From Myxococcales bacterium (GTDB taxonomy: Bacteria > Lernaellota > Lernaellaia > Lernaellales > Lernaellaceae), in contig JAAYVF010000132.1 of assembly GCA_012517325.1 (NCBI GenBank), forward strand, positions 9,665 to 73,664: DNA of 64,000 bases, written 5' to 3'. Position 1 is the stretch's first letter, and each line of letters starts with the position of its first letter. This document shows, one piece after another, positions 2,112-56,291 of this stretch. The position numbers and the translations under genes are program-made. The notes below the pieces were generated by a model. That model searched no databases, was not told where the DNA came from, and saw only the letters and a list, made by a program, of their open reading frames with translations.

Positions 2112-3650
2112 TCAAGAGGTTTCAAAACCGGCCGCATCCAAATCGGCCAACCCGCGCACCAATCGGCCGAAATCGAGAAACGAGGAATAGAGATAAACGC
2201 CGTAGCGCAGCATCAGCGGGTCCGCGACCGAGCCACCCCAGGTCGATACGGCCCGTTTGAAGAACAAAGCTTTTTCCAGCGTCACGGTTTGGCCGAGACG
2301 AAGACTGTCCATCATTCGGAGCGAGCCGGCCACCAACAAATCGCCATACCCCTGCTGCGGCGATCGATCGGGATCGGTCCAAATCCAGGGATGATCCAGC
2401 CGCGCCGCCCGGACATTGAACGACCGATCGGCCGAGTAGGAAAGAATCAGGTAGTCGGTGCCAGGAACCGGTTGCACGGAGAACTCGCCGAAAACCGGCT
2501 CCGCGATAATCGGCTTTGCCTCGTCGATCGCCCCACGGGCCCAACACTCGCTCGGATCGCCGGTATAATAATAAATCCGCGCGGCCGATTGGGGGCTCTC
2601 CAGATCGTCCAAGCTGAGATAGGCCAGATAAAGCGAGCTCTCGCGGTAATCGAGACTGAAATCGAGCGAGCATGCCGCCCAGGATTCCGCGCTGCCGCCA
2701 TCCAGGTCGTTGTCGAGGTCCATCCCACTGCCGTAAATCAACAAACCACGCTCCCCCGATTTCGTCCAAGGGATCCCGCACGCGTCATTCGCCGGCGGGA
2801 GTCGATCGCGTTCGACCAGGACCGGCGCCGCCTGGATGAATTTCTTCTCGGCGAACAACGACAGATGGCGCCATTCCCCGCTTGCCACATCCATCGCCAA
2901 AAGATGCGATTGATCGCATCGCGGGTTGTTGAGATACTTCCCATACCAATAGTAAATGGTTTCCTCATCCACTTGAATCACTCCCGTCGGTACGGAGTAA
3001 CCAAGTTCCAACCCGCGGGGAGCACCATCGACAAAAATCCGGTTTTGCTCGAATTCGGTCAGTAAGCCGGTTGCCTCGCCGGACGCATCAAAGGCGGCCT
3101 GTTCGGTCACCGAAACGTATTGAAGTCCTCCATCCAGGTCGGCCGAGGCCTCCACCCAATCCAGCGTACCGTCGCCGTTGAAATCGTACGTATACGGCAC
3201 GCCAAGGAGCGAACCACCGACCCAGAGCCGACCCGAAATCCAGCGGCTTTTCGGGATGGAATCGCCGAAGAAATAAAGAGTCGCGTCACCGACCCGGACG
3301 CTGTAACCGAGATCGGTGCCCCAGATCAGGTTCTCACTGAAATTAGCCGGCAGACCGGGAGCGGGGAGATCGCCGGGCAATCTGCGTCCCGCCAAGAAGT
3401 TCCGTTCGTAATGGCAGATTTCCACCGCCAGCCCATCGCCATCCGCGCTCAAGCAATGTGAGTAATCCACTTCCTCGCTCGGATTGACGAGGGCATTCGT
3501 CCCTTCCCACTGGCTGGCGGCGACTGCCGGGCGATGCCAAGCCAACCCGATCGCGATCACAAAAAAGAGGTGGATGAAGGATTGAATCCGGGCTTGGCGA
3601 TCGATTCGGCCGGACCGGAAAAACAAAGATGTGCAATACAAGTTGTTCAT
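2112..3650 (-). CDS. Secreted hypothetical protein with FG-GAP/VCBS-like Asp-Gly motifs
   Basis: 512 aa with an N-terminal hydrophobic signal segment. It contains DFNGDGTLDW and LDNDLDGG motifs. I recognise no catalytic signature. Confidence 0.55.
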   Translation of the reverse strand: MNNLYCTSLFFRSGRIDRQARIQSFIHLFFVIAIGLAWHRPAVAASQWEGTNALVNPSEEVDYSHCLSADGDGLAVEICHYERNFLAGRRLPGDLPAPGLPANFSENLIWGTDLGYSVRVGDATLYFFGDSIPKSRWISGRLWVGGSLLGVPYTYDFNGDGTLDWVEASADLDGGLQYVSVTEQAAFDASGEATGLLTEFEQNRIFVDGAPRGLELGYSVPTGVIQVDEETIYYWYGKYLNNPRCDQSHLLAMDVASGEWRHLSLFAEKKFIQAAPVLVERDRLPPANDACGIPWTKSGERGLLIYGSGMDLDNDLDGGSAESWAACSLDFSLDYRESSLYLAYLSLDDLESPQSAARIYYYTGDPSECWARGAIDEAKPIIAEPVFGEFSVQPVPGTDYLILSYSADRSFNVRAARLDHPWIWTDPDRSPQQGYGDLLVAGSLRMMDSLRLGQTVTLEKALFFKRAVSTWGGSVADPLMLRYGVYLYSSFLDFGRLVRGLADLDAAGFETS

Positions 3651-3990
3651 GGTCCCAACTTCGGCAACCCGGCCATCTCGACAAGCGAGATCCGTCGGCT
3701 TTGCGTCCCCACCTCGCGGCGGGTTTGCCTTTATCGGTCGGGGAAAACGCGCGACTCATTTCGCGCGGTCCGCAACCGGATGTCTATTAATGGTTTCGAC
3801 GGCTCCGCGAAAAGACTTTACCTTTTTCCAAAAACATCACCGCTATTTTCACGATCCAACGTCCATTCATGGTTTGATCGTTGTATATTTACACCAGCGG
3901 TTGACCTTTTACTCGCCACATAATGGGCTTTAGCCACTACCGATCATATAGATATAATAGAATTCACGCGAAACAAAACGGGGATTTCAT

Positions 3991-5986: not shown

Positions 5987-6910
5987 TTATTTCGCCTCCA
6001 ACCGGTCGCCTTCGCACAGGCGGACGCCGTTGAGAAACGCGGCGGCATCCATCGCCTTCTTGCCCTCCACCTGGACCGACAGCAGCCGGAGCGCGCCCTC
6101 GCCAGCGGCGACTATCAAGTCTTTTTTCGCCCGCAGGACGGTGCCCGGAGCGCCGGCGCCGTCGACGCATTCGGCCCGCAGAAGCTTGATCGTCTTCCCC
6201 TGCCAGAAGGTATAGGCGCCCGGCCAGGGATTCATTCCGCGCAAGCGGGCGGCGATGATCCGCGCGGGCCGGGTCCAGTCGACGAGGCCGTCTTCCTTTT
6301 TCAGCATCGGCGCGTAGGAAGCGCCGTCCGCCGGTTGCGGCCGGGGCTGGATTTTATCGGCCAGCCAGTCGCGCAGGGTTTCGAGCAGCAGCGGTCCGGC
6401 GCAAGCGGCCAGTTTTTCGAGCAGCGAGCCGGCGTCGTCCGCGGGATCGATCGGCACTTCACGCTGGGAAAGAATCGGGCCGGTGTCGATGCCCTCGTCC
6501 ATTTTCATGATCGTCACGCCGGTGACCGTCCGGCCGTCGGCGATCGCCCAGTTGACCGGCGCCGCGCCGCGATAGGCCGGCAACAGGCTGGCGTGCGCGT
6601 TAACGCACCCGAAGGGCGGCGCGTCCAGCAAGGCCGGGCGCAAAATCTTACCGAAAGCCGCGACGACGATGACCTCCGGCTCATCGGCCAGAATCCGCTC
6701 GCGATCCGCGCGAGTGATTTTTTCGGGTTGCAGGATCGGAAGGCCGGCTTCCAGGGCTACGGTCTTCACGGGGGGCGCGGCCAGACGGCGGTCCCGTCCC
6801 GCGCCGCGGTCGGGCTGCGTCACCACCAGGGAAGGACGCTCGCCCATCGTCAGAAAATAGCGAAGGATGGTGGCCGCGTATTGCGGCGTGCCGAGGTAGA
6901 CAAAGCGCAT
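5987..6910 (-). CDS. fmt: Methionyl-tRNA formyltransferase
   Basis: MRFVYLGTPQYAATIL... with formyltransferase N- and C-domains. It sits between def and rsmB, as is usual. Confidence 0.9.
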   Translation of the reverse strand: MRFVYLGTPQYAATILRYFLTMGERPSLVVTQPDRGAGRDRRLAAPPVKTVALEAGLPILQPEKITRADRERILADEPEVIVVAAFGKILRPALLDAPPFGCVNAHASLLPAYRGAAPVNWAIADGRTVTGVTIMKMDEGIDTGPILSQREVPIDPADDAGSLLEKLAACAGPLLLETLRDWLADKIQPRPQPADGASYAPMLKKEDGLVDWTRPARIIAARLRGMNPWPGAYTFWQGKTIKLLRAECVDGAGAPGTVLRAKKDLIVAAGEGALRLLSVQVEGKKAMDAAAFLNGVRLCEGDRLEAK

Positions 6911-6913
6911 GGA

Positions 6914-7438
6914 TCAACCGTTGTTGGCGGATTGAAGCTTTTGCTTCTTCAACCGTTTCTTGATGGCGGCGCGCTTCAGCGGGCTGAGGTGATCGATGAA
7001 CAGAACACCGTTCAGGTGATCGATTTCGTGTTGCAGAACAATGGCCAGATAGCCCTTACCGTCGATTTCCATCAGATGGCCGTCGGGGTCCTGCGCCTCG
7101 ACCTTGACGTGCGCGAAGCGCGGCACTTCGGCCCGTTCTTCCGGCACCGACAGGCAGCCTTCATCGATCGAGGCTTCGCCCTCGGCGAAAACGATGCGGG
7201 GGTTGATCAGCGCGACCAGCCCCGTGTTGATGTTCTCTTCCTGATCGCGGACGTCGATCACGATGACCTGCTGCAACACGCCGACCTGATTGGCGGCCAG
7301 ACCGACTCCCGGCGCGGCGTAAAGTGTTTCGGCCATGTCGCGCACCAGTTTTTTCAAATCGTCGTTGAACTTCGTGACCGGCTTGGCTTTTTCACGCAAG
7401 ACTGGGTCGGGGAAGGTATGGATCGGTTTCAGCGCCAT
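6914..7438 (-). CDS. def: Peptide deformylase
   Basis: GVGLAANQVG, EGCLSVP and HEIDHLNG are the three conserved Def motifs. Confidence 0.92.
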   Translation of the reverse strand: MALKPIHTFPDPVLREKAKPVTKFNDDLKKLVRDMAETLYAAPGVGLAANQVGVLQQVIVIDVRDQEENINTGLVALINPRIVFAEGEASIDEGCLSVPEERAEVPRFAHVKVEAQDPDGHLMEIDGKGYLAIVLQHEIDHLNGVLFIDHLSPLKRAAIKKRLKKQKLQSANNG

Positions 7439-9072
7439 TAGTCACCCTTTTGCTTCGTTTTCGGTTCAACCGCCGGGAGTTCAAGGAAAAAAGTGCTGCC
7501 GGCGCCTTTTTCGCTCTCCACCCACAGGCGGCCACCGTGACTTTCAATTATACCATAACTAATCGACAATCCCAGTCCAGTGCCCTCCCCCACTTTTTTC
7601 GTCGTAAAAAACGGGTCGAAAACATGCGGGATATCCTGGGGATCGATGCCGATGCCGGAATCGCGGATCGCCACTTGCACCAGGCCGTCCCGGGATCGCG
7701 TGCTGATCGTGATTTTGCCTTTTGCCGGGATCGCCTGGACGGAATTGTGCAAAATATTCATGAATACCTGATTGAGCTGCCCAGGATTGCCGGAAATGGG
7801 CGGCAAGGGCTCGAAATCACGTTCGATTTCGATCCGGTCCTTGTATTGGTAGTACAATAGTTGCAGCGTGGATTCGAGGCCTTCCAACAAATTCACGTCT
7901 TCGCGCACGCCCGAATCCAGGCGGGAAAAGACGCGCAGGTTCTGCACGATGGTCTTCATCCGTTCGGCGCCGGTGGCGATGTTTTTGACGATCTTCTGGA
8001 TATCCTCGGTCAGATACCCGAATTCCGCCTGGGTCTTGAGCCGGTCGATCTCCCGCCGCATTTCCTCCGACAAGGGAAGATTGTCGTATTCCTGGATGAT
8101 CTCAAAAATGACGCGAAGGTTGTCGGCGAGCAGCTTGGTGGACGCCGAGACGAAATTGAGCGGGTTGTTGATTTCGTGCGCCAGACCGGAAACCAGCACG
8201 CCCAACGACGCCATCTTTTCGGAATTGACGAGCTGCATCTGGGCTTCTTTTTGCGCCTCGTAGGCCTTGCGAAGCTGCTCGTTGGTGCGGCGCAATTCGG
8301 CATTGGCCGCCGCGAGTTGCCGCGACCGGATTTCGACGCTGCGTTCCAGCTTGATGCGCAAGGTCACATCGCGGGTCAATTCCAAGCCGGCGACGATGTT
8401 CCCCTGCTGGTCGCGGATCGGGCTGCCGGTGGCCTCGTAATAGCGCAGGTTGCCGTGCTTGTCGTAAACCCGCCGCAGGCTGCGATGGATTTGCCCGGTT
8501 TCCATGGCGATTTTCACCGGACAACCGGTGCACAACTCGCCCTTGTGTTCGTATACCCGGTAGCAATATTCGCCGACCTGGTTGCCGAACACCTCGATCA
8601 TCGGATCGTTGAGGTAAATGACCCGCATGTCGCGGTCGACGATGCTGATGCCGTCGCCGATGCTCTGCAGGAAGGCTTCGACCTGCTGTTTTTCGCCGGC
8701 CAGTTCGGTTTCGACTTCCCGGCGGATTTTCTGCTCGAGCTCGGGGCGACGGGTATCGATCAGTTTGGAAGCCTGATTGATGTTTTGCCACAAGGCCAGC
8801 AATTCCGGTTCACCCCGGAAATCGGTCGCGCCTTCGATCGGCCGTCCCGCGACGACCTCCTTGGCCTTGGATTCCAGCAGTCGCAAGCGCCGCACGTGTT
8901 GGCGTCCGAAAACGAAGGAAATCAGCAGGGCAACCGTCACTCCGGCCAGCAGCGGTACGAGCAGGGACGTTTGTGGAAAAAGGGTGTGAACGATCAACAT
9001 GACGACGGCGGGCAAAAGCGAAGCCAGACCAAGCCAGATCGCCATTTTCGTCAGAAAGCCGACGGGTTTCAT
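7438..9072 (-). CDS. Sensor histidine kinase (TM - HAMP - PAS - HisKA - HATPase)
   Basis: An N-terminal TM segment is followed by a PAS region with the Cys cluster CYRVYEHKGELCTGC. The H-box is LAHEINNPL, and the C-terminal HATPase motifs are DSGIGI and GTGLGLSIS. Its stop overlaps the def start by 1 nt. Confidence 0.8.
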   Translation of the reverse strand: MKPVGFLTKMAIWLGLASLLPAVVMLIVHTLFPQTSLLVPLLAGVTVALLISFVFGRQHVRRLRLLESKAKEVVAGRPIEGATDFRGEPELLALWQNINQASKLIDTRRPELEQKIRREVETELAGEKQQVEAFLQSIGDGISIVDRDMRVIYLNDPMIEVFGNQVGEYCYRVYEHKGELCTGCPVKIAMETGQIHRSLRRVYDKHGNLRYYEATGSPIRDQQGNIVAGLELTRDVTLRIKLERSVEIRSRQLAAANAELRRTNEQLRKAYEAQKEAQMQLVNSEKMASLGVLVSGLAHEINNPLNFVSASTKLLADNLRVIFEIIQEYDNLPLSEEMRREIDRLKTQAEFGYLTEDIQKIVKNIATGAERMKTIVQNLRVFSRLDSGVREDVNLLEGLESTLQLLYYQYKDRIEIERDFEPLPPISGNPGQLNQVFMNILHNSVQAIPAKGKITISTRSRDGLVQVAIRDSGIGIDPQDIPHVFDPFFTTKKVGEGTGLGLSISYGIIESHGGRLWVESEKGAGSTFFLELPAVEPKTKQKGD

Positions 9073-9084
9073 CTTCCGGCCGAC

Positions 9085-10254
9085 TCAACCGGGAATCACC
9101 ACGATCCGATCGCGCCCCTGCTCCTTGGCCTGATAAAGAGCTTCATCAACGAGGCTGATCAGGCTTTCGCGATTGGAAGCGCGCGGATGTGGGAAAAAGG
9201 CGATACCGATACTGGCCGACAGATGGATCTTATCGTTGTTCGGCGCGACGAAGACATGGCCCTTCAAATCCGCCTGAATCCGCTTGGCCAGAAACATGGC
9301 GCGATCGGTTCCGGTGTGCGGCAGGATGATCAGGAATTCGTCGCCGCCGTAACGGGTGGGATAATCCGTTTCGCGAATGTTGTGCCGGATGATGCGCGTC
9401 GCGGTGCGCAGCACCGTATCGCCGAACAAGTGGCCGTGCGTGTCGTTGACGATCTTGAAACGGTCCAGGTCGATCATCATCACGGTCAGAAACAGATTGT
9501 ACCGCCGCGCCCGGCCGATTTCGCCGTCCATCAAAACCAACATCTGCCGGTAATTGAAAAAACCGGTCAGGCCGTCGGTGATGCTCAATTGTTCGAGCTG
9601 GCGGTTGATCGTCTCGAGTTTGATGTTTTTCTGTTTGTTTTCTTCCTGCGCCTTGATGAGATCGAGATTGGCGCGCGCGAATTTTTCACTCATTTCGATC
9701 GCCAGCTCCCGCTGCTGGCGGTATTCATTGGCCAGTTTCTCAAAGGCCGCTTTTTGCCGTTCCAATTCGGCGTTCATGGCTAGCAATTCCTGGTTCTTGG
9801 CGATGAGATCCCGCGTCAGCCGTTCGTTTCCGGTAAGCAAATCGTATCGTTCGAGCTCTTCCGCGACGATTTGTTTGATATCGCCCGGATCCCAGGGTTT
9901 CGCGGCGAAACGATGCACGCGGCCTTGGTTGATCGCCTGCACCGCGACGTCCATGTCGCCGTAGCCGGTGACCAGCATGCGGACCACCGCCGGATATTTT
10001 TCCTGGAGCCGAATCAACAGTTCGGTGCCGGTCATCCCCGGCATGCGCTGATCGGTGATGACAAGGTGGATTTCTTCCTGCGCCATGATTTCCAAGGCTT
10101 GTTCGGCGCTGCGGGCTTTGAAAATCCGGTTGCCGCGCCGCAGCGTGGAGGCCAACAAATCGAGGTTTTCTTCTTCATCGTCGACAATCAGGATGTGATG
10201 GATTGTCGGTGACGGATCATCGGCGTTTTTTTTATCGACGACTGGTTGTTCCAT
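9085..10254 (-). CDS. Response regulator with receiver and GGDEF diguanylate cyclase domains
   Basis: The receiver is ILIVDDEEENL...LVITDQRMPGMTG. A coiled-coil linker follows, then a GGDEF domain (RYGGDEF). Confidence 0.85.
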   Translation of the reverse strand: MEQPVVDKKNADDPSPTIHHILIVDDEEENLDLLASTLRRGNRIFKARSAEQALEIMAQEEIHLVITDQRMPGMTGTELLIRLQEKYPAVVRMLVTGYGDMDVAVQAINQGRVHRFAAKPWDPGDIKQIVAEELERYDLLTGNERLTRDLIAKNQELLAMNAELERQKAAFEKLANEYRQQRELAIEMSEKFARANLDLIKAQEENKQKNIKLETINRQLEQLSITDGLTGFFNYRQMLVLMDGEIGRARRYNLFLTVMMIDLDRFKIVNDTHGHLFGDTVLRTATRIIRHNIRETDYPTRYGGDEFLIILPHTGTDRAMFLAKRIQADLKGHVFVAPNNDKIHLSASIGIAFFPHPRASNRESLISLVDEALYQAKEQGRDRIVVIPG

Positions 10255-11590: not shown

Positions 11591-12229
11591 ATGGAGACAG
11601 CCATGCGGATCCGTAGTTTCATGATTGCGGTAGTGTGCCTTTTCATTTTCGCCGGATTAGCCGCATCCGCCCCGGTGGTGGATGAAAAGAAACCGGCCTT
11701 GGGCGCGCACTTCATGTACAGTTTCATTCCCGATTCGTTTCTGAGCATGGCCTATCAGGAACACACCTCGATTTCGGCCCTCGGCTACGGTGTCTGGGCT
11801 TCCTACGGGTTCACGCAATTCGACGCCCTCTTCCAGGTCAACAACTGGACGCTGATGATGGACGACGGCGCCTGGCGGGCGAACGGCGACAAGAAAAAAT
11901 ATCGCTACTGGATGGAAAACGACAACTTCGGCATGGCTGATTTCACGACTTCCATCCTCTGGAAGTGGCGCGTGCATCCGGCCGTCGAACCCTACGTCGG
12001 TCCGTCAATGGGCGTCGGTTTCCTTTACGGCCATTTGAAATCCTGGGACTCCAACGACGCCGGCAAACAGATCGGCGAGCCGACCAACAAAGAACTGCCG
12101 CCGGTTCTGCCGCTCGTCGGCTTCCTCGGCGGCTGCCGTTTTTACCCGGTGCCGAATTTCCGCATCTCGGCCGACCTTGGCTTTTACGCCGGGTTCGCCG
12201 GCGGTGTCAGCCTCGGTTACGCTTTCTGA
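11591..12229 (+). CDS. Outer-membrane beta-barrel-like secreted protein (alternative start 11603)
   Basis: It has a signal peptide (MRIRSFMIAVVCLFIFAGLAASA) and an alternating-hydrophobic, aromatic-rich sequence ending GVSLGYAF. Confidence 0.5.
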   Translation: METAMRIRSFMIAVVCLFIFAGLAASAPVVDEKKPALGAHFMYSFIPDSFLSMAYQEHTSISALGYGVWASYGFTQFDALFQVNNWTLMMDDGAWRANGDKKKYRYWMENDNFGMADFTTSILWKWRVHPAVEPYVGPSMGVGFLYGHLKSWDSNDAGKQIGEPTNKELPPVLPLVGFLGGCRFYPVPNFRISADLGFYAGFAGGVSLGYAF

Positions 12230-12232
12230 TCG

Positions 12233-12631
12233 ATGCTGAAAAAGCTAACCGTCCCGACGGCCAGCCGCGAACAATTTCTGGATATCACTCGTCAGGTACA
12301 GGAAGTCGTGCGTGAAGCCAGCCTGCAAAGCGGCACCGTCACGGTTTTCGTGCCGCACACCACCGCCGCGGTGACGATCAACGAAAACGCCGATCCCAGC
12401 GTGATCCACGATCTGCTGTTCGCGCTGGACCACGCCTTCCCCGACCACCGGCAATTCCGCCACGCCGAGGGCAATTCGGCGGCCCACGCCAAATCCAGCG
12501 TCGTCGGATGCAGCCTGACGGTCATCGTGGAAAACGGCCGGTTGGCGTTGGGAACCTGGCAAGGCATCTACTTCTGCGAATTCGACGGACCCCGGCAGCG
12601 GTCGTGTTACGTCAAATGCCAGGCCGACTGA
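12233..12631 (+). CDS. YjbQ/UPF0047 family protein (secondary thiamine-phosphate synthase-like)
   Basis: 132 aa. The motifs TGTVTVFVPHTTAAVTINENADP and HAKSSVVGCSLTVIVENGRLALGTWQGIYF match UPF0047. Confidence 0.7.
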   Translation: MLKKLTVPTASREQFLDITRQVQEVVREASLQSGTVTVFVPHTTAAVTINENADPSVIHDLLFALDHAFPDHRQFRHAEGNSAAHAKSSVVGCSLTVIVENGRLALGTWQGIYFCEFDGPRQRSCYVKCQAD

Positions 12632-12642
12632 GCGGCGGTTCG

Positions 12643-14376
12643 TCAATCCACGCGCGGTTTCGCCCAGACACCCCAGGCGCCGACCAGATCGCCGGACGGA
12701 TGCGGATCGGTCGACAACGCCAGGCTCACCGTGCGGCCGGCATACTCGGTCAGATCGACCGCCACCTCGTGCCAGCGGTTTTCCTCCGGGTTCGCCTTGG
12801 GATCGAGATACCGCGCGAAGCATTCATGGCCGTCGATTTCCACCTGAAAACGGACGCCTTTGCCGCCCCAACCCAAGCAAAGCGGGTCGAGGGCGATCGC
12901 GGCTGAAAAACGCGCGCCGGCGGGCACGAAAACCCGCCAAACGACCCGGCTGCGCGGATGGGCAAAGAGGCACAGCCGCTCGTCGCCGTCGATTTTCACC
13001 AGGTTCAGCCGCACCGGCTCATGGGCCAGTTCGCGCCCCACCCGGGCCGCGGGCAACTCGGCCAGCAGATCATACGAACCGAGCCGTTCCTTTTCCGCCT
13101 TGAGGCGCAGGGTCTCGCGGCGGAATTCCCAAAAGACTTCCTCCAACCGCTCGCGGCCGACCGCACCGGGTTTGAGGATCGATTTTTCGAAATAGGTCGG
13201 CCGGCCCGGTTGGTCGATCAGGTTTTCCGCCACGCAACGTCGATGCAGGCGCGTGCCCGGATAGGGATAGAAAATCGAGCACTGCGCGCCATTGGGCCGC
13301 AACTCACGGTGCAGGGCGAACAGGTCGCGGATCGTCTCCTCGGTTTCTCCGGGGAAGCCGACCATGTTGAAAGTCCAGGTCTGCAGGCCGATTTCGTCGC
13401 ACCAGCGGAAAACCCGGCGCAGGTCGTCGTTGCTCATGCGGCGGTTCAGCACCTCGGCGCGCAGGCGTTCGTTGCCCGCCTCGACGCCCGCCATCACCAT
13501 GTAACAGCCGGCGTCCTTCAGGGTCTGCAGAATCTCCCGCGTGACGGTCTGCACGTGGATGTAAATCTTGAAGGGGTACGAAAACCGTTCGCGGTACAGC
13601 GCGCAGAATCGCCGCACCCAATCGTGATCCAGGGTGAAGATGTCGTCCTCGAAAAAGATTTTGCGAAACGGGAGGTGCGCCGCGAGGTGGGCGACCAGGG
13701 CGATCATTTTTTCCGGGCGGCACATCCGCACGTACGGCCCGAGCCCCCGGTAGGCTTCACGGCGCGCGCTGTTGGCGCAATAGGCGCAGTCGAAGGGGCA
13801 GCCGCGCCCGCCCATGATGCCGATCTCGCCCAGCGCGTCGCGCAGAATTTCGTCGTGGTCCCACATCGCGCGGTCGTCGATCGGCAAGGCGTCGAGATCC
13901 GCGACCAGCGGCCGGCGCGGATTGCGTTCCACCGTTCCGTCGGGGCGGCGTTGCCACAAATTGCCGATACCGCCGGCCGGGCGACCGGCCTCGCGCGCGG
14001 CGCACCACTCGACGACGGCCGCCTCGCCCTCGCCGATGCAGACCACGTCGGCGAACGGCTCGCCGATCACGCTTTCCGGATCGAGGATCGCGTGAATGCC
14101 GCCGAACACGCAGGGCAGATCCGTCGCTTCCTTGACCCACCGAGCGTAACGCGGTGCGTCCACCCACTGATGAGTGTTGACCGGAAAAAACACGGCGTCC
14201 GGCGCGGCGGCGCGCAGCCGCGCGAGAAATTCGTCGCGCGCGAGGTGGTGGCGCAGGTAGAGCAGTTCGCTCGTGTGTCCCGCGCGCCGCAAGCAGGCAT
14301 CCAGTTGGCCGACGCCGTGATTGTAATGCACGTAATTGCCCGTCCCGGCATCGAGGTAGACCCACCAGATCTTCAT
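12643..14376 (-). CDS. B12-binding radical SAM enzyme with a ~150-aa C-terminal extension domain I do not recognise (paralog 1)
   Basis: An N-terminal Rossmann-like B12-binding region (MKIWWVYLD...) is followed by the radical SAM motif GCPFDCAYC. The C-terminal region (LFAHPRS...GVRFQVEIDG...WHEVAVDL...) is shared with the adjacent paralog. The start ATG overlaps the upstream stop as ATGA. Confidence 0.75.
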   Translation of the reverse strand: MKIWWVYLDAGTGNYVHYNHGVGQLDACLRRAGHTSELLYLRHHLARDEFLARLRAAAPDAVFFPVNTHQWVDAPRYARWVKEATDLPCVFGGIHAILDPESVIGEPFADVVCIGEGEAAVVEWCAAREAGRPAGGIGNLWQRRPDGTVERNPRRPLVADLDALPIDDRAMWDHDEILRDALGEIGIMGGRGCPFDCAYCANSARREAYRGLGPYVRMCRPEKMIALVAHLAAHLPFRKIFFEDDIFTLDHDWVRRFCALYRERFSYPFKIYIHVQTVTREILQTLKDAGCYMVMAGVEAGNERLRAEVLNRRMSNDDLRRVFRWCDEIGLQTWTFNMVGFPGETEETIRDLFALHRELRPNGAQCSIFYPYPGTRLHRRCVAENLIDQPGRPTYFEKSILKPGAVGRERLEEVFWEFRRETLRLKAEKERLGSYDLLAELPAARVGRELAHEPVRLNLVKIDGDERLCLFAHPRSRVVWRVFVPAGARFSAAIALDPLCLGWGGKGVRFQVEIDGHECFARYLDPKANPEENRWHEVAVDLTEYAGRTVSLALSTDPHPSGDLVGAWGVWAKPRVD

Positions 14377-16097
14377 CCGTCGCTCCGCGTCAAATGGGGA
14401 TGGCCCCAAAGCGCCCAAAGCGCCGTCAGGTCGTCACCGCTTTCCGGTGCGGTCAAGAGCCGCAACGATCCCTTTTCGGCGAGGCGAAAATCGGCCGCGA
14501 CCTCGTGCCAGCCGCGGTCTTCGACCCGGCGCCACGGATTCAACGCGCGGTCCAGGCAAGTCTCGTCACCGGCGCGGACGAGGAATCGCACTCCGTGGCC
14601 GTCCCATTCGTAGCAGCGCGGGTCCAGCGCCAGCGCCGCGAAAAAGCGATAACGTCCGGGCGGCAATTCGTAGGCGATCTCGCTGCGTGGATGGGCGAAA
14701 AGCGCGAATTTCGTCTCGCGGCCGATCCGCGCGCGCTGTGGGACGACGGGCTCGGCCCCCGTCCGCCGGACCAGCTCCGGCGCCCAGCGTTCGACCAGAT
14801 CCACTTCGCCGCGCCGCGCCGCCGCCAGGGCCCGCCGTAGCGCCCGCTCTTCCAGCTCCGGTATCGCCGCACAAAAAGCGCGATAGGTTTCGCGTTGTCG
14901 ATCGCTCGGAAAACCGGGCAGTTCGAGCGCCGGTTCGGCTGAAAAATACGTCGGCCGCGCGACGCCGCGATGCAGTTTTTCCACCCGGCAGCGTTCGGCG
15001 AGTTTCGTTCCCGGGTACGGTTCGAACAGGCTGACCTGGATCTGGTCGGGCAGCGTCGCGGCGCAAAGGTCGCGCGTGGCCTGCGCTGTTTCCGGCGTTT
15101 CGCCGGGCACGCCGAGAATGTGAAATGCGCGCGTCACGATGCCCAGTTCGCGGCACCAATCAAAAAACTCGGTGATTTGCGCATTGCTCATTTGGCGCCC
15201 GAGCACCTCAGCGCGGATGCGCGGGTCGCCGTGTTCCACGCCGACGTTCACCATCCACAGGCCGGCCGCGCGCAGCCGTCGCAGATCGTCCCGCGAAATC
15301 GCGCCGATCCGCGCGTAGACGCGAAACGGCAGCGCAAACCGGCTTGGGAACTCACGCAGGAATTCTTCGAGGAATTCACGGTTGAGCGTGAAAATATCGT
15401 CCTCGAAGTAAAGCGAATCGACCGCGTAACGACCGCACAAGCAATCCAGTTCCGCCAGCAGGTGCGACACGCTTCGCCACCGCACCCAGGGCTCGCCGGA
15501 ATAAAGCCGCCGCCAGCCTTCGTTGCAGCAATAGGTGCAGGGATACGGGCAGCCGCGGCCGGCGAGCGCCGTCAGTTCGCCGCCGTTGACCCGCAGGATT
15601 TCCGCCATCGGGAAATGCCGCCGGTCGTAAATCGGCAGCGCGTCCAGGTCGGTCAGCAACGGACGAAGCGCCGGGCGGTCGGTTCCCGTTTGGACATTGG
15701 CGATCGCGGTCAACGGTTTGCCGCCGGCCAGGTCGAGCAGCGCCCCCTCGCCCTCGCCGACGCAGACGCCGTCGCAGACCGCGGCGGCCAGGATTTCCTC
15801 GGGCGCGAAGGTCGCGTGCACGCCGCCCGCGAGCACGGGAACGCCGGCCTCGCGGGCCCAGGCCATCAGTTGCCGGGCGAACGGCCATTGGTGCGAGGAG
15901 AAACCGCAGGCGAGCCAATCGGGCGCGGCGGCGCGCAGTTCGAGTCGCCAGGATTCGCGCGTCAGCATTTCCTGCGGCAGGGAAACGACGGGCTCGTGGC
16001 CGGCGGCGGCGAGTCCTGCGGCCAGTGCGCCCAGGCCGTGCGGGTAATGAAGGCCGTTGCGGGTCGCGATATTCGGCACGACAAGCAGGATTCGCAT
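14373..16097 (-). CDS. B12-binding radical SAM enzyme with the same C-terminal extension (paralog 2)
   Basis: MRILLVVPNIATRNGLHYPHG is the B12-binding N-terminus, followed by the radical SAM motif GCPYPCTYC. The C-terminus (LFAHPRSEIAY...GVRFLVRAGD...GWHEVAADF...DDLTALWALWG) is homologous to paralog 1. Confidence 0.75.
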   Translation of the reverse strand: MRILLVVPNIATRNGLHYPHGLGALAAGLAAAGHEPVVSLPQEMLTRESWRLELRAAAPDWLACGFSSHQWPFARQLMAWAREAGVPVLAGGVHATFAPEEILAAAVCDGVCVGEGEGALLDLAGGKPLTAIANVQTGTDRPALRPLLTDLDALPIYDRRHFPMAEILRVNGGELTALAGRGCPYPCTYCCNEGWRRLYSGEPWVRWRSVSHLLAELDCLCGRYAVDSLYFEDDIFTLNREFLEEFLREFPSRFALPFRVYARIGAISRDDLRRLRAAGLWMVNVGVEHGDPRIRAEVLGRQMSNAQITEFFDWCRELGIVTRAFHILGVPGETPETAQATRDLCAATLPDQIQVSLFEPYPGTKLAERCRVEKLHRGVARPTYFSAEPALELPGFPSDRQRETYRAFCAAIPELEERALRRALAAARRGEVDLVERWAPELVRRTGAEPVVPQRARIGRETKFALFAHPRSEIAYELPPGRYRFFAALALDPRCYEWDGHGVRFLVRAGDETCLDRALNPWRRVEDRGWHEVAADFRLAEKGSLRLLTAPESGDDLTALWALWGHPHLTRSDG

Positions 16098-16119
16098 CGC
16101 GCGGCCCGCTCCGCCCGGC

Positions 16120-17625
16120 TTACAAGCGATAAAGCGGCGTGTATTTTTCGTCCAGGTAGTTCATGAACGGTTCGGCGCTCGGCTTTTTGCCGGTCACGCG
16201 CTCGATCAATTCGTTGCCGGCGTACCGTTTGCCGTGCACGTGGATATTCTTGCGCAGCCACCTGAGAATCGCCGTGAATCGTCCTTTTTCCACCAGCGCC
16301 AGGACGTCGGGAATGTCCGCGCGAATCTTTTCCCACAGTTGCGCCGCGTACAGGTTGCCGATGGTGTACGTCGGGAAATACCCCAGCGCGCCCAGCGACC
16401 AGTGCACGTCCTGCAACAGGCCGTTGGTGTTGTCGGGCACCGCGATGTCCAGGTACTCCTTCATCTTGGCGTTCCACAGCGCGGGCAGATCGTCGATCGC
16501 AACCCCGCCGGCCACCATCGCCCGCTCGATCTCGAAGCGCAGGATGATGTGCAGGTTGTAGGTGACCTCGTCGGCTTCCACGCGGATCAGCGACGGTTCG
16601 ACGACGTTCACGCAATGGTAGAAGTTCTCCAGCGAGAGATCGCGCAGGGATTTGGCGAAGGTGCGCTGGAATTTCGGATAGAAATATTTCCAGAACGACA
16701 GGCTGCGGCCCATGATGTTTTCCCAGAAGCGGCTCTGGCTCTCGTGCACGCCGAGCGACACCGCGTCGCCCAGCGGCGTCCCCAGGTGCGGGTCGGGCAG
16801 CCCTTGTTCGTACAGACCATGGCCCGCCTCGTGAATCGTGCCGAACAGGTGCGGCCGCGGATCGTCGACGAAGAACCGCGTGGTCAGGCGGACGTCGCCC
16901 TTGTTGCCGCCGCAGAACGGATGCGCCGAAACATCGATGCGGCCGCCCTCGAAATCGAAGCCCATCTTCCGCAGGACCAGCCGGCTGAATTTTTTCTGCT
17001 TTTCGATCGGGTAGCGGCGGCCGGCGAGCAGCAGCCGGGCGTCGTAGCGCGGGGCGCTCAGAATGCGCTGCAAAAACGGCACCAGCCGGCCCTTCAGGTC
17101 GGTCAGCAGTTCGCGGATCGACCCCTCGGTCGCAAACGGCTCGTGCAGATCCAACATCGCGTCGTAGGGGCGCTCCGCGTAGCCCAGCGCCGCCGCCTCT
17201 TCCTTGCGCAGGCGGACGGTCTTGGCGAGAAACGGCGCGAAGCGGGCGTAATTGTTATCCTGCCGGGCCTCGATCCAGGCCATTTGCGCCTGACTGTTGT
17301 GGCGGCTGATTTCCTCGACGAGCGCGGTGGGCACCTTGGTGGCGCGGTCAACTTCGCGCTTGATCTCCCGAATGTTGACCTTGCCGTCCGCGGTCAGGGC
17401 AGTCGAATGGGCCGCCAGTTCGCCGACCTTGGCCACCATCGCCGGATCGGTCATTTTGCGGTGCACCAGGCCGTCCAGAAAGGCCAGTTGCTCGCTGCGC
17501 CGCTCGAGGCCCTTTTTCGGCAGATTGACCTGCAGATCCCAACTCAGCACCTGGTTCATGCTGTTGACCAGCCAGATTTCCTTGTACCAGGCGATGACTT
17601 CCGCGTACGTTTCCTTCAGCGACAT
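16120..17625 (-). CDS. M32 family metallocarboxypeptidase (carboxypeptidase Taq-like)
   Basis: HEAGHGLYEQG is the HExxH motif. IRVEADE and LLQDVHWSLGALGYFPTYTIG are M32 signatures. Length is 501 aa. Confidence 0.8.
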   Translation of the reverse strand: MSLKETYAEVIAWYKEIWLVNSMNQVLSWDLQVNLPKKGLERRSEQLAFLDGLVHRKMTDPAMVAKVGELAAHSTALTADGKVNIREIKREVDRATKVPTALVEEISRHNSQAQMAWIEARQDNNYARFAPFLAKTVRLRKEEAAALGYAERPYDAMLDLHEPFATEGSIRELLTDLKGRLVPFLQRILSAPRYDARLLLAGRRYPIEKQKKFSRLVLRKMGFDFEGGRIDVSAHPFCGGNKGDVRLTTRFFVDDPRPHLFGTIHEAGHGLYEQGLPDPHLGTPLGDAVSLGVHESQSRFWENIMGRSLSFWKYFYPKFQRTFAKSLRDLSLENFYHCVNVVEPSLIRVEADEVTYNLHIILRFEIERAMVAGGVAIDDLPALWNAKMKEYLDIAVPDNTNGLLQDVHWSLGALGYFPTYTIGNLYAAQLWEKIRADIPDVLALVEKGRFTAILRWLRKNIHVHGKRYAGNELIERVTGKKPSAEPFMNYLDEKYTPLYRL

Positions 17626-17655
17626 CGTGCCTCTCCTTCGTTGCTTCGCCGCCGC

Positions 17656-18558
17656 CTACCACTCCGGCGCGGCGAACCCGATGCACTCGCGACCGCGCAG
17701 CCAACCGTCGCGGGCGTTGTAATAAAGACGCAGTTCGTTTCGATAAGCGACCAGGTCGAACGCGTAGACGAACGCGTTTTTCCAGCCGGGTTCGGGAGCG
17801 ATGATCGGGCGATCGTGAACCGCCTCGAAGTACAGCCCGTCGCCCGAACGCAACAACAGGATCGCCGACCGGCTGCGGCCCTCCGCGTCGCGGTACAGGC
17901 CGTTGTTGAAGGCCCAGAAGCCCTTTTTGCCGTCGGCGTACACCTTGAGCGAACCGCCGCCGAAATTGCGGTACGGCTCGGCCGGATCGGGGCCGAGGAG
18001 CGGCAACGGATGCCGCTTGTACGGCCCGAGCACGGCATCGGCCTCGGCGTAGCCGACGTAGCGCGGCTCGAAATACAGGCAATCCCACAGCCAGATCCAG
18101 GAGGTGCTGTAATAAAGACGGTACCGCCCGTCGATTTTCAGCAGGCAGGGATTGCCGACGAAGCGGATCGCCTGCCCGTCCCAGTCGAAGGTCGGTTCGG
18201 CCAGCGTTTGCGGTTCGCTCCAGTGTTCGAGGTCGGCCGATTGCCGCGCGACCACCCGGGAAGTGCGGTAATTGCGCGCGTGCAATTCGTAGAGCAGGTA
18301 AAACGTGCCGTTTTCCGGGTAGATGAACGCCCGGAAACCGCGAAACAGCCGCTGGCCGACCTGCTCCCAAGCGATGCCGTCGTCGCTTTTAAAATGCAGG
18401 ATGAAACCGACGCCGTTGGCGAACAGGTGCCATTTGCCGTCCGGCGACCGGTCGGGCGTCAACACGGTCGGATCGGCCAGCAGCCAATCCGGCTTCCGCG
18501 GTTCGATCAGCGGATTCGCCGGGAAATCCCGCCAGGTCGCCTTCGCTAAATCACGCAT
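17656..18558 (-). CDS. Glycoside-hydrolase-like five-bladed beta-propeller protein (GH43/GH130-like)
   Basis: 300 aa with repeated W/Y-rich blades (GKWHLFANG, GTFYLLYE, GRYRLYYSTS, GLYFEAVHD). The assignment is by fold-family resemblance only. Confidence 0.45.
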   Translation of the reverse strand: MRDLAKATWRDFPANPLIEPRKPDWLLADPTVLTPDRSPDGKWHLFANGVGFILHFKSDDGIAWEQVGQRLFRGFRAFIYPENGTFYLLYELHARNYRTSRVVARQSADLEHWSEPQTLAEPTFDWDGQAIRFVGNPCLLKIDGRYRLYYSTSWIWLWDCLYFEPRYVGYAEADAVLGPYKRHPLPLLGPDPAEPYRNFGGGSLKVYADGKKGFWAFNNGLYRDAEGRSRSAILLLRSGDGLYFEAVHDRPIIAPEPGWKNAFVYAFDLVAYRNELRLYYNARDGWLRGRECIGFAAPEW

Positions 18559-18597
18559 TAAAATCCTCGTTGAATTTCAGCGGAACCCGGCAAGTCT

Positions 18598-18619
18598 GCC
18601 AAGCCGGCGGCGGCTTGGC
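18598..18619. promoter_or_regulatory. Perfect 9-bp inverted repeat (GCCAAGCCG-gcgg-CGGCTTGGC) in the divergent promoter region between the two radical SAM operons; candidate operator
   Basis: A 22-nt palindrome seen directly in the sequence. It lies centrally in the 154-nt gap between divergently transcribed genes. A TATAAT hexamer sits 5 nt upstream of the 18713 start. Confidence 0.4.
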
Positions 18620-18712
18620 AAGCGGGAAGGCGAAATTGGCTGCCGCAACACGATCAGCCTGGCGACACAAGCGCGGATTCCCGCTTTTTTCCGACTCGCG
18701 CTATAATAAGGC

Positions 18713-19711
18713 ATGATTCCTCTGCCGCGATTCGTCACTTTTCACGTCACCAACCGCTGCAACTGCCGGTGCCGCCATTGCAACATCTGGCAGTTGCCCG
18801 AGCCGCCCGCGCCGGAAACGGAACAGTTTTGCCGCGCCGTAGACGATCTGGCCGACTGGCTCGGCCCGACCGAATTGGTCGTGGCCGGCGGCGAGCCTCT
18901 GCTTTGCCGCCACACGCTGCCGGTGCTCGAACGGGCGGCGCGGCGCGGCCTGCGAGCTTCCCTGGCCACCAACGGCCTGCTGCTCGACGAGGACATCGTG
19001 CGGCGGCTGGCCGCGCTCGGCCTCGAGGCGGTAAACATCAGCCTGGACGGCTTCGACCACACGCACGACCGGATCCGCAACCAACCGGGAGCGTTCGCGC
19101 GAGTGCTGCAAGCCGCCGAGGCGCTGCACCGGGCCGGCATCCGCGTCTGTGCGATCTGCGTGCTCATGGACGACAACCTCGACCAGATCACCGGCCTGGT
19201 CGATTTCCTCGCGCGCGGCGACCTGTTCGACGGCATCTTCTTCCAGGCGATGGCGCTGCCGTTCGGCACGCGCGCGGCCATCCCCGGCTGGTGGCGGGAA
19301 CACCCGCGGTTTCCGCACGACACCGCCCGCGTACGCGCCCTGCTCGACGAATTGCTGGCCATGAAGCGCGGCGGCTGGTTCATCCTCAACGAAGACAACC
19401 AATTCCCGGCGATGCAGGCCTACTTCGCCGCGCCCGATCGCTTCACGCTGGAGCGTTGCGCGGTCGGGGAGATCGGTTTCACGGTGAACGCCGGCGGCGA
19501 CGTGATGCTGTGCAATTACTTGGAACCGATCGGCAACATCGCCCGGGGTTCGCTCCGCGACATCTATTATTCGCCGGAGGCTGAACGACGGCGCCGGGAA
19601 ATGGCGGCCTGCCGGGACAACTGCCATCTGCTGATCAATTGCTGCTTCGATCCGTCACAACTGGTTTTACCTCCCGCGACGGCGGTCGCCACGGACGGCA
19701 GCCATGACTGA
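18713..19711 (+). CDS. Radical SAM protein with a C-terminal SPASM-like Cys-rich domain
   Basis: The N-terminal motif is CNCRCRHC (CxxxCxxC). The C-terminus has CAVGE...MLCNY...CRDNCHLLINCC, typical of SPASM/twitch auxiliary-cluster domains. Confidence 0.7.
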   Translation: MIPLPRFVTFHVTNRCNCRCRHCNIWQLPEPPAPETEQFCRAVDDLADWLGPTELVVAGGEPLLCRHTLPVLERAARRGLRASLATNGLLLDEDIVRRLAALGLEAVNISLDGFDHTHDRIRNQPGAFARVLQAAEALHRAGIRVCAICVLMDDNLDQITGLVDFLARGDLFDGIFFQAMALPFGTRAAIPGWWREHPRFPHDTARVRALLDELLAMKRGGWFILNEDNQFPAMQAYFAAPDRFTLERCAVGEIGFTVNAGGDVMLCNYLEPIGNIARGSLRDIYYSPEAERRRREMAACRDNCHLLINCCFDPSQLVLPPATAVATDGSHD

Positions 19712-20318
19712 GCCGCCGGTGGGGATGCGCCGCCGCACCATTGCCCTGCTGATCGCGATCAATTTCGCCTATCTCTTTTTCTGTTGCTTTTTTCAGCCTC
19801 CCTGGCGTTACGAATACCCGTTCGAACTCATGGGCGACGTCATCGCCTTCGTGCTCTTCGTCGCGGGATACATCCTTTATCTGTTCGTATTCTGGCTGCT
19901 CGGCCGCCGGATGGCCTTTCGCCCGAAGACCCGGCTCATCGGTCATCTGCTGCCCCTGGCGGTGATGACGGCGTTTTTCTTCCGCGATCTGACCGGCATC
20001 GGCGCGTACAACGGCGAACAGGTCATCCCCTCGCCCGATCGGTCACTGACGCTGGAAACCTACATCAATTGGCAGGCGAAGCATCCGACGGCCTGCAAAA
20101 CCTGCGTCGTCCTGCGTGTTAGGGACAAGGACGGCCGTGTTTTGACCGAAATTGATACCCATGCCAGCGATGTCCAGGGTTGGTCGGTCGATTGGCTGGA
20201 CAACGAGCAGATCGATTTTCACAGCAGCGATATCGGCGACACGAAATACCGGCGAGTCAGCGAGCGGGAATGGGCGCCGGTCGACCGCCAATCGCCTCGT
20301 TCCGATTTCAACGAATAG
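19704..20318 (+). CDS. Membrane protein of unknown function (N-terminal TM bundle plus C-terminal soluble domain)
   Basis: It overlaps the upstream stop by 8 nt. There are four hydrophobic helices. No motif I know. Confidence 0.5.
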   Translation: MTEPPVGMRRRTIALLIAINFAYLFFCCFFQPPWRYEYPFELMGDVIAFVLFVAGYILYLFVFWLLGRRMAFRPKTRLIGHLLPLAVMTAFFFRDLTGIGAYNGEQVIPSPDRSLTLETYINWQAKHPTACKTCVVLRVRDKDGRVLTEIDTHASDVQGWSVDWLDNEQIDFHSSDIGDTKYRRVSEREWAPVDRQSPRSDFNE

Positions 20319-53819: not shown

Positions 53820-54746
53820 TCAGCCGGTCGGTTGCAGAATGAATTTCTCCACCAGGTGGTGCGGATGATAGCTTTCCTTCGCCTGACGCAGGCCCGGCAG
53901 GCCCAAATCCTGCTCGCGATTGACGAACGTCATTGCGGCCAGCGCCTTTTCGCAAAACAAGCGGTTGAGCGCCTGATAAACGCCGGGATATTGCGTGGTG
54001 CCTTTTTCGAAGTGAATCACCGCCGTGTCGGCGGTCAACCGCTCGGCGACGGTGAAGGCCAGAATCCGCCGCGGGCCGTCGGCGGTGAGCAAGGCGCCGC
54101 CGAAAAGCGGTAGTCGGTCCCAATATTCCAGGGCGCGGCAGACCGCCTCGTTTTCGGCGTCCAGGTCGGGATGTTCGCTGCATTCCCGCACCTCGCACCA
54201 ATCCTTTTGCATCTCCAGGCAGAACGCGACCAGATCGGCATCGAGCGGCTGGTAAACGGCGGCGACCGATTTTTCGAATTTTTTAATCAGGTTTCGCTTG
54301 CCGTCGAATTTGCGGCCGCTCAGGGTCGCCAGTTCCTCGCGGAGATAGACGTAATCGGCCTGATCGCGGTCGGCGACGAGCGACAGTTCCGGATCGACGG
54401 CGTGCAATCGGTGCGCGGCGCTCGCGGGCAGCCGGGCGAATCGCGGCGCGCCGCCCATGGCGGCGGCCCAGGCCAAGACCGCGCGGATGCCGATCCGGTC
54501 GAGCGGTTCGCCGTACGGCGGCAACAGATAGCCGCGCTCGCGCGGGCCGCGCCAGAGCAACAGCGTATTTCGCCAGCGCGCCAGAAAAACGGGGTGCGAC
54601 CCGCTCCAGGCGAAGAGGTTGGTGAAGGTCATTTCGGAGGTGCCGGACGGTTCGGTGGCGAACCGCGCGGCGAGAAAAGGCTGATCCGCGAGAGCCAACG
54701 GCCGGCACGCGGGCAGTTCGGGCACCTGCGACAAAAATTCCAACAT
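53820..54746 (-). CDS. DUF2156 domain protein (MprF C-terminal aminoacyl-lipid synthase-like domain, standalone)
   Basis: DYVYLREELATLSGRKFDGKRNLIKKF matches the conserved DUF2156/LPG-synthase C-domain block. Confidence 0.6.
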   Translation of the reverse strand: MLEFLSQVPELPACRPLALADQPFLAARFATEPSGTSEMTFTNLFAWSGSHPVFLARWRNTLLLWRGPRERGYLLPPYGEPLDRIGIRAVLAWAAAMGGAPRFARLPASAAHRLHAVDPELSLVADRDQADYVYLREELATLSGRKFDGKRNLIKKFEKSVAAVYQPLDADLVAFCLEMQKDWCEVRECSEHPDLDAENEAVCRALEYWDRLPLFGGALLTADGPRRILAFTVAERLTADTAVIHFEKGTTQYPGVYQALNRLFCEKALAAMTFVNREQDLGLPGLRQAKESYHPHHLVEKFILQPTG

Positions 54747-54769
54747 GGTCGTCTCGCTGAAAGTCGGCG

Positions 54770-54952
54770 CTAGTATTGTACTTTTTTCGTCCAGGTATTT
54801 TCAAAGGTTTTATTGCGCTGAGCCCACATCGTCCAGGCGGTGACGACCGAGCGCTTCAGTTCCGGCCAGCTTTTAATTCGCCAGAGCGCCTTCAAGATGT
54901 AACGCGGCCGGAAATAAAAAGCCAGATAGGCCTTCCGCGTCCAGGCCTGCAC
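54770..54952 (-). CDS. Possible small basic Trp/Lys-rich protein (60 aa, GTG start 3 nt after the upstream stop)
   Basis: MQAWTRKAYLAFYFRPRYILKALWRIKSWPELKRSVVTAWTMWAQRNKTFENTWTKKVQY. It lies in a low-GC stretch. Coding status is uncertain. Confidence 0.3.
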   Translation of the reverse strand: MQAWTRKAYLAFYFRPRYILKALWRIKSWPELKRSVVTAWTMWAQRNKTFENTWTKKVQY

Positions 54953-54955
54953 TTC

Positions 54956-56257: not shown

Positions 56258-56291
56258 CGGCCGACTCCCCGATGTTTCACCGTCGCGGTTT

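Follow-up and report, generated by a model that had tools for sequence, protein, structure and literature searches.

Gene organization of the locus

The DNA analyzed here is a stretch of 64,000 nucleotides (contig JAAYVF010000132.1, positions 9,665 to 73,664 of the forward strand, assembly GCA_012517325.1), hereafter referred to as the window, from a metagenome-assembled genome (MAG) labelled Myxococcales. At positions 12643-18558 lie four minus-strand genes (Table 1), encoding a β-propeller protein, an M32 carboxypeptidase, and two proteins with B12-binding and radical S-adenosylmethionine (SAM) domains that we call rSAM-A and rSAM-B. An initial annotation, made from the sequence alone, had described these genes as a co-directional, operon-like set that ends in two paralogs of 574 and 577 aa. 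Both the layout and the two lengths were confirmed from the open reading frames (ORFs) and from the junctions, which we read directly in the sequence. The propeller stop codon is separated from the M32 ATG by a 30-nt gap holding the ribosome-binding site GGAGAGG, the M32 stop codon from the rSAM-A ATG by 22 nt, and the stop of rSAM-A overlaps the start of rSAM-B in the sequence ATGA (14376-14373). Downstream of rSAM-B, there is space of just 11 nt.

A promoter scan of positions 12000-19800 returned no promoter-like sites, and terminator-like sites occurred there at chance level. Likewise, an Rfam scan of the window placed no RNA element, such as a cobalamin riboswitch, upstream of the operon; the only hits were a c-di-GMP riboswitch and a tRNA located elsewhere.

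Table 1. Coordinates of the features discussed in the text (window numbering)
Feature	Position	Strand	Remarks
Propeller gene	17656-18558	minus	ORF of 300 aa
M32 carboxypeptidase gene	16120-17625	minus	ORF of 501 aa
rSAM-A gene	14373-16097	minus	ORF of 574 aa
rSAM-A tail	14376-14792	minus	residues ~436-574; CBM51/NPCBM-like β-sandwich
rSAM-B gene	12643-14376	minus	ORF of 577 aa counted from ATG
rSAM-B tail	12646-13062	minus	residues ~439-577; same CBM51/NPCBM-like domain; tail profile 177 bits
rSAM/SPASM gene	18713-19711	plus	332 aa; Pfam Radical_SAM 93.2 bits, SPASM 27.6 bits
Shadow ORF	16057-18549	plus	830 aa
Shadow ORF	18701-19627	minus	308 aa
LPG_synthase_C-domain gene	53820-54746	minus	
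Third B12-radical SAM gene	54956-56257	minus	433 aa; no tail
AhpC/TSA-like gene	56292-56879	minus	
Phage-type integrase gene	620-1954	plus	
tRNA gene	1999-2072	minus	
ORF with weak DUF4185 match	2112-3650	minus	512 aa
c-di-GMP-I-GGC riboswitch	3659-3738	minus	Rfam 66.6 bits (gathering score 59)
FlgE gene	58428-59720	minus	flagellar hook
FliK gene	60912-62732	minus	flagellar hook

rSAM-A and rSAM-B are paralogous class-B radical SAM proteins

Both proteins consist of an N-terminal cobalamin-binding Rossmann-like domain followed by a radical SAM core, which is the arrangement of class-B (B12-binding) radical SAM enzymes. Scores for rSAM-A and rSAM-B were 48.9 and 50.7 bits, respectively, against the Pfam B12-binding domain (PF02310; cut-off 32.1 bits), and 60.4 and 71.5 bits against Radical_SAM (PF04055; cut-off 29.5 bits). 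The CX3CX2C cluster motif of rSAM-A (C183/C187/C190) was invariant in an alignment of 30 homologous sequences. The two proteins could be aligned over their full length by BLASTP (2e-118, 38% identity), and all of the shared blocks that the initial annotation had picked out (LFAHPRS, ALDP.C..W.G.GVRF.V, WHEVA.D, and DL..W..W) were found in this alignment. Identity between the two paralog groups is 39% in the C-terminal tail and 38% in the catalytic core, which marks the tail as a genuine homologous domain under constraint, as opposed to a low-complexity extension; in the paralogs its conserved length is ~135 aa, and it is as well conserved as the catalytic core.

No characterized B12-radical SAM family claims either protein, in line with the earlier view that any pathway involved would not be a described one. 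Neither rSAM-A nor rSAM-B reached the cut-off of a named NCBIfam equivalog (HpnJ, BchE, ApyD, AprD4, PhpK, and others). The best match of both was HpnJ (115 bits vs. a cut-off of 577.6), followed by ApyD, a methylase of ribosomally synthesized and post-translationally modified peptides (RiPPs; 111-112 bits vs. 750), and by a B12-radical SAM protein of ladderane-lipid synthesis, also far under its cut-off. BchE (79-81 bits vs. 481) and AprD4 (63-78 bits vs. 500) scored lower, and AprD4 was the nearest solved structure by sequence (63 bits). The class-B enzymes GenK/GenD1, AprD4, and HpnJ carry out radical SAM chemistry on sugar carbons, and all of them have substrates of sugar type. The pair shares with them the N-terminal B12-binding domain and a radical SAM barrel with the CX3CX2C motif. 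However, rSAM-A and rSAM-B miss the curated cut-offs, and the two paralogs form a fixed gene pair.

The C-terminal tail is a divergent CBM51/NPCBM-like β-sandwich

The suggestion that both paralogs end in a homologous, β-rich extension was upheld by their end-to-end alignment and by an AlphaFold model of the tail, which is all-β with 10 strands (pLDDT, the predicted local distance difference test score, 93.9). In this predicted structure the tail has the β-sandwich fold of family 51 carbohydrate-binding modules (CBM51). A profile hidden Markov model (HMM) scan of the last ~150 residues of each paralog placed no Pfam or NCBIfam model above threshold in that region, in agreement with the initial failure to recognize the domain. 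Within the window, the tail HMM matched rSAM-A and rSAM-B only; the third B12-radical SAM protein is indeed tail-less.

CBM51 corresponds to the Pfam family NPCBM (PF08305), which has a gathering score of 23.9 bits. The two tails scored 16.0-18.9 bits against this model, below the gathering score and in the same register in rSAM-A and rSAM-B (E = 0.0016 for rSAM-B). When 20 tails were scanned one by one against Pfam, six gave an NPCBM hit at E ≤ 1 (best E = 1.2e-4), all of them sub-gathering, and NPCBM was the sole family to recur. Given the CBM51 fold and these recurring sub-threshold matches, we consider the tail to be a divergent CBM51/NPCBM-like β-sandwich. rSAM-A and rSAM-B are an ancient paralogous class-B radical SAM pair, each fused to such a domain at its C-terminus. 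A search of the tail profile against the sequences in the PDB gave nothing significant. Compared with known CBM51/NPCBM modules (those of Clostridium perfringens GH95, GH98, and ZmpB, and of an Akkermansia galactosidase), the tail is just 9-18% identical and scores under 23.9 bits. Moreover, those modules are extracellular appendages of glycosidases and peptidases, whereas here the tail belongs to a cytoplasmic radical SAM protein, and its glycan binding is putative.

We know of no described GenK-, AprD4-, or HpnJ-type member with a C-terminal CBM51-like β-sandwich. Our search of a full-text literature library found no description of a B12-radical SAM protein with a CBM or NPCBM domain, an absence that is limited to that library. 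What is new here is the fusion, not previously described, of a well-known superfamily to a well-known fold, and its retention as a pair of paralogs.

The tail itself is widespread. While a word-indexed search with the tail alignment returned just four fragments, a profile search run exhaustively against 1.84 billion cluster representatives (clusters at 50% identity) recovered 3,753 proteins at E ≤ 1e-3, of which 1,678 remain at E ≤ 1e-10. Many of these proteins are 700-1,300 aa long with two copies of the domain, and tandem copies are often found in tetratricopeptide repeat (TPR) proteins. Ten sampled members comprised TPR repeat proteins, Wzy_C plus TPR proteins, sulfatase/phosphodiesterase and PMT_2 proteins, and fusions with B12-radical SAM or radical SAM domains, including a B12-radical SAM-tail-methyltransferase fusion (P0202) and a fusion of radical SAM, a DUF6716 glycosyltransferase, the tail, and FliW (P0233). 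In none of the ten was the tail-like region covered by a Pfam model. In other words, the domain occurs widely without annotation and goes together with glycan enzymes of the cell envelope; what is rare is its fusion to a B12-radical SAM protein. The family of >3,700 clusters without a Pfam model could be annotated as CBM51-like, and the tail-bearing B12-radical SAM proteins would offer enzymologists a small, defined family of a few dozen clusters. A minor peculiarity was seen in one rSAM-A ortholog (P0008, at 8001-9761 of locus L004), in which the first conserved strand of the tail carries an 11-residue internal tandem duplication (FCLFAHPKAEH / FCLFAHPRSE).

Distribution and conservation of the gene pair

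Approximately 33 of the best 120 homolog clusters of rSAM-A span at least 90% of the query length, and hence include the tail; shorter relatives (~470 aa) end before it. A motif scan of one genome per species (185,579 species) identified five loci, all in MAGs, and a metagenome scan added nothing beyond duplicates of two loci, L005 and L011. To map the four genes, the window proteins were compared by tblastn with all fetched loci. The complete propeller-M32-A-B block was present in eight distinct loci, namely the window and L002, L004, L005, L011, L012, L013, and L014, with identities to the window proteins of 56-69% (propeller), 60-69% (M32), 56-62% (rSAM-A), and 67-73% (rSAM-B). Five of the seven other block loci share their flanks: genes for two uncharacterized membrane proteins lie upstream, and the block is followed by those for a 688-aa protein, YjbQ, and a 212-aa protein. 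The L014 sequence does not extend far enough for its flanks to be seen, and L002 is the only block locus with different ones (rSAM/SPASM, GT2, and GT4 genes upstream, GH38 downstream). Because the flanking genes are shared over a long range, we regard the syntenic block loci as a single clade.

Distant genomes keep the pair in other surroundings, and among the loci examined the four-gene neighbourhood is confined to the eight MAG loci. In L007 and L015, A-like and B-like genes are followed by a gene for a 521-aa rSAM/SPASM protein, with no M32 or propeller gene; in L015 this is followed in turn by a gene for a short-chain dehydrogenase/reductase of the type that acts on nucleotide (NDP) sugars. 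In L009, from Candidatus Alcyoniella australis (Lernaellota), the A-like and B-like genes are accompanied by a third, tail-less B12-radical SAM gene, an rSAM/SPASM gene, and a methyltransferase gene. Outside the block clade, the pair was never found beside M32 or the propeller in the loci examined; rSAM/SPASM genes and genes of sugar type take their place. Across phyla, the A gene precedes the B gene, usually with overlapping stop and start codons. A neighbour-joining tree placed the first gene of every locus in an A clade and the second in a sister B clade, Lernaellota included, so the duplication is old. A separate tail-bearing clade, distinguished by an HPPS motif and represented by L010, has a single tail-bearing radical SAM gene amid Wzm, Wzt_C, GT2, and two rSAM/SPASM genes.

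The carboxypeptidase and the propeller lie outside the conserved core

The initial annotation had placed M32 and the propeller in the same tailoring pathway as the radical SAM proteins. The M32 protein is an ordinary member of its family, with a full-length match to PF02074 (578.8 bits vs. 25.1), the motifs HEAGH (HEXXH) and HESQS, no signal peptide, and a score of 448 bits against the Thermus carboxypeptidase structure 5wvu. It has the same full-length match and the same motifs as Thermus aquaticus-type M32 enzymes, and the one unusual thing about it is its location, specific to this clade, ahead of a radical SAM pair. The same syntenic region also encodes an S15 X-Pro dipeptidyl peptidase, which fits general peptide catabolism.

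The propeller is a five-bladed, cytoplasmic protein of 300 aa that was placed between GH130 and GH43. Its description as glycosidase-like is correct insofar as it is GH43-like. Nevertheless, it scores below the Pfam GH43 threshold (PF04616; 28.3 bits vs. 32.2) in a partial match covering residues 84-182 and, with respect to the GH130 β-mannoside phosphorylases and GH43 glycosidases, is equidistant from several families. The propeller family is broad (287 matches at 45-70% identity, including Bdellovibrionota, Binatia, Lernaellota, and Asgard archaea). In three other genomes examined, the propeller gene stands alone among unrelated housekeeping genes, and in a Lernaellota MAG it lies on a different contig from the radical SAM trio. 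Close orthologs of the propeller (56-64% identity, such as P0275 and P0287) are on contigs whose lengths match those of none of the listed rSAM-A orthologs.

Since the propeller stands alone elsewhere, and M32 is ordinary and lies near an S15 peptidase gene, we regard the link of the radical SAM pair to these two genes as clade-specific. Both are outside the conserved core and adjoin the pair only in one Myxococcota-like clade, whose members, with one exception, share their flanking synteny. The proposal of a common pathway is therefore not sustained. The propeller could share its glycan substrate with rSAM-A and rSAM-B, while M32, tied to the pair only by adjacency, is more likely a passenger.

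Radical SAM/SPASM and glycan-type neighbours

The gene upstream of the propeller, absent from the initial annotation, encodes an rSAM/SPASM protein. It is divergent from the propeller gene, with a 154-bp upstream region common to both. The region is ~64% GC and contains two shadow ORFs opposite real genes. One of these, at 18701-19627, had been a candidate for the upstream gene and was rejected in favour of the plus-strand rSAM/SPASM gene. The window rSAM/SPASM protein is 61% identical to that encoded at the same position in L002, and rSAM/SPASM genes also flank the pair, or the tail-bearing radical SAM gene, in L007, L009, L015, and L010. Orthology of these recurring neighbours was considered and rejected: the window and L007 proteins are just 23% identical, so the association holds at the superfamily level only. 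On the strength of that association, the divergent rSAM/SPASM protein is a possible partner of the pair. Against the structure 7tol it gave a generic-level match (7e-8), ranking among SkfB, PqqE, and MoaA. The nearest solved relatives of the 521-aa L007 protein are BlsE and BtrN, which act on sugars. An analogy with tetraether-lipid synthesis, in which two B12-radical SAM proteins would be joined by a radical SAM protein of ~520 aa (as GrsA/GrsB are by Tes), was discarded, as the L007 SPASM protein matched BlsE and BtrN and had no match to tetraether synthase.

In L010, a polysaccharide locus of the ABC-transporter type (Wzm/Wzt_C), a GT2 glycosyltransferase (6281-7744, plus strand) also bears the tail domain (E = 7.7e-19). 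Its gene lies two genes upstream of that of the tail-bearing B12-radical SAM protein, with a gene for a 67-aa, cysteine-rich DUF6485 protein in between. The closest tail-less relative examined sits in a Wzx/Wzz/GT4/PMT_2 polysaccharide locus.

A proposed function in glycan modification, and alternatives

The data show the architecture of both proteins and the tail fold, their paralogy and the retention of the pair, and the glycan-type neighbours of its relatives. Building on these points, we tentatively favour, as a reading that falls a little short of probable, that rSAM-A and rSAM-B are class-B radical SAM enzymes that modify a glycan or glycoconjugate, with the CBM51-like tail choosing the sugar substrate and putting it in position. 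In the cytoplasm, the β-sandwich would recognize either a sugar chain or a glycoconjugate by its sugar headgroup, and present one sugar residue to the radical SAM barrel. By analogy with the superfamily, the [4Fe-4S] cluster would cleave SAM to a 5'-deoxyadenosyl radical, which would then abstract a hydrogen from an unactivated sugar carbon. The resulting substrate radical might take a methyl group from methylcobalamin (C-methylation), or undergo rearrangement or elimination of the kind seen with HpnJ or AprD4. Each paralog would catalyse a different modification, probably one after the other, or both would work together in a complex, which could explain why the A-then-B order and the overlapping stop and start codons have been kept across phyla.

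Several observations weigh against this proposal. No glycosyltransferase or polysaccharide exporter adjoins the operon in the window, and all homologs of the pair come from uncultured MAGs. The NPCBM matches are sub-threshold, and a jelly-roll domain could equally serve in oligomerization or in contact with a membrane or lipid. Among the best NCBIfam matches, none of which comes near its cut-off, are enzymes that act on lipids or peptides. Furthermore, methyl transfer is not assured, since a B12-domain annotation does not always mean that cobalamin is used; AprD4 is an example.

The substrate could instead be a glycolipid or membrane lipid, with the pair modifying a sugar headgroup or an alkyl chain and the β-sandwich contacting the headgroup or the membrane. 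HpnJ, the best match of both proteins, acts on glucosaminyl-bacteriohopanetetrol, and the third match is also a lipid enzyme. In five of the eight block loci, rSAM-B is followed by the gene for the 688-aa protein, which contains a VolA/Pla-1 phospholipase-like segment (E = 2.5e-11; 11561-13627 in L004, and also in L005, L011, L012, and L013), and the tail family includes membrane enzymes (PMT_2, Wzy_C). Yet even the best of the lipid-family scores reaches only 115 bits of the 577.6 required, the phospholipase-like gene is missing from the window and from L002, and a tetraether-synthase-like trio finds no support, as the 521-aa SPASM protein lacks a match to GDGT-MAS. We regard lipid tailoring as unlikely, although it overlaps with the glycoconjugate proposal where the target is a sugar headgroup. 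Slightly less likely still is a small soluble metabolite, such as an aminoglycoside- or nucleoside-like sugar derivative, with the tail in a structural or regulatory role. In favour of this, AprD4 is the solved structure closest in sequence, and the substrates of BtrN and BlsE are small antibiotic precursors derived from sugars; however, the loci examined show no other secondary-metabolite genes alongside the pair (no aminotransferases, additional tailoring enzymes, resistance genes, or exporters), and the same tail occurs on the GT2 enzyme of the Wzm/Wzt locus.

RiPP-like peptide tailoring, with C-methylation by the B12-radical SAM proteins, cross-linking by rSAM/SPASM, and C-terminal trimming by M32, is the weakest of these explanations and in our view improbable. 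It would account for the second-best match (ApyD), for the recurring rSAM/SPASM neighbours, and for the presence of M32 in the operon in eight loci. But the intergenic gaps leave no room for a precursor gene, neither protein contains a RiPP recognition element-type domain in Pfam or NCBIfam, and in the loci examined M32 does not accompany the pair outside one clade. In addition, the substrate-side domain is CBM-like, relatives are located in polysaccharide loci, and the ApyD score is far under its cut-off of 750. The small ORFs neighbouring the pair or its relative in L007, L009, and L010, which we inspected as possible precursors, were not conserved between loci.

Returning to the glycan proposal, a bolder form of it can be envisaged. 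Known sugar-acting B12-radical SAM enzymes use small antibiotic precursors or a hopanoid headgroup as substrates and, as far as we know, the C-methyl sugars of polysaccharides are made at the nucleotide-sugar stage. The pair might represent an undescribed type of glycan tailoring, in which an assembled or lipid-linked polysaccharide is C-methylated or rewritten by radical chemistry, with the CBM51-like module as guide and as a glycan handle shared by thousands of envelope enzymes (GT2, PMT_2, Wzy-like, and sulfatases). We consider this specific form doubtful. If it were true, a radical SAM protein with its own CBM-like domain, near glycosyltransferases and polysaccharide exporters in relatives, would point to radical chemistry directly on glycans. 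If the enzymes act on something ordinary, what remains is a novel arrangement of domains within a very large superfamily.

Other features of the window

The third B12-radical SAM gene is flanked by genes for an LPG_synthase_C-domain protein and an AhpC/TSA-like protein (region 53820-56879, minus strand). This neighbourhood looks like a lipid-modification context and is apparently unrelated to the rSAM-A/rSAM-B pair. The c-di-GMP-I-GGC riboswitch is directly upstream of a 512-aa ORF whose sole match is a weak one to DUF4185 (propeller-like). A phage-type integrase gene adjoins the tRNA gene, and together these (620-2072) may mark the edge of an integrated element. Finally, the window encodes the flagellar hook proteins FlgE and FliK. 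Classical myxobacteria lack flagella, and the Myxococcales label of this MAG may therefore be a loose one.

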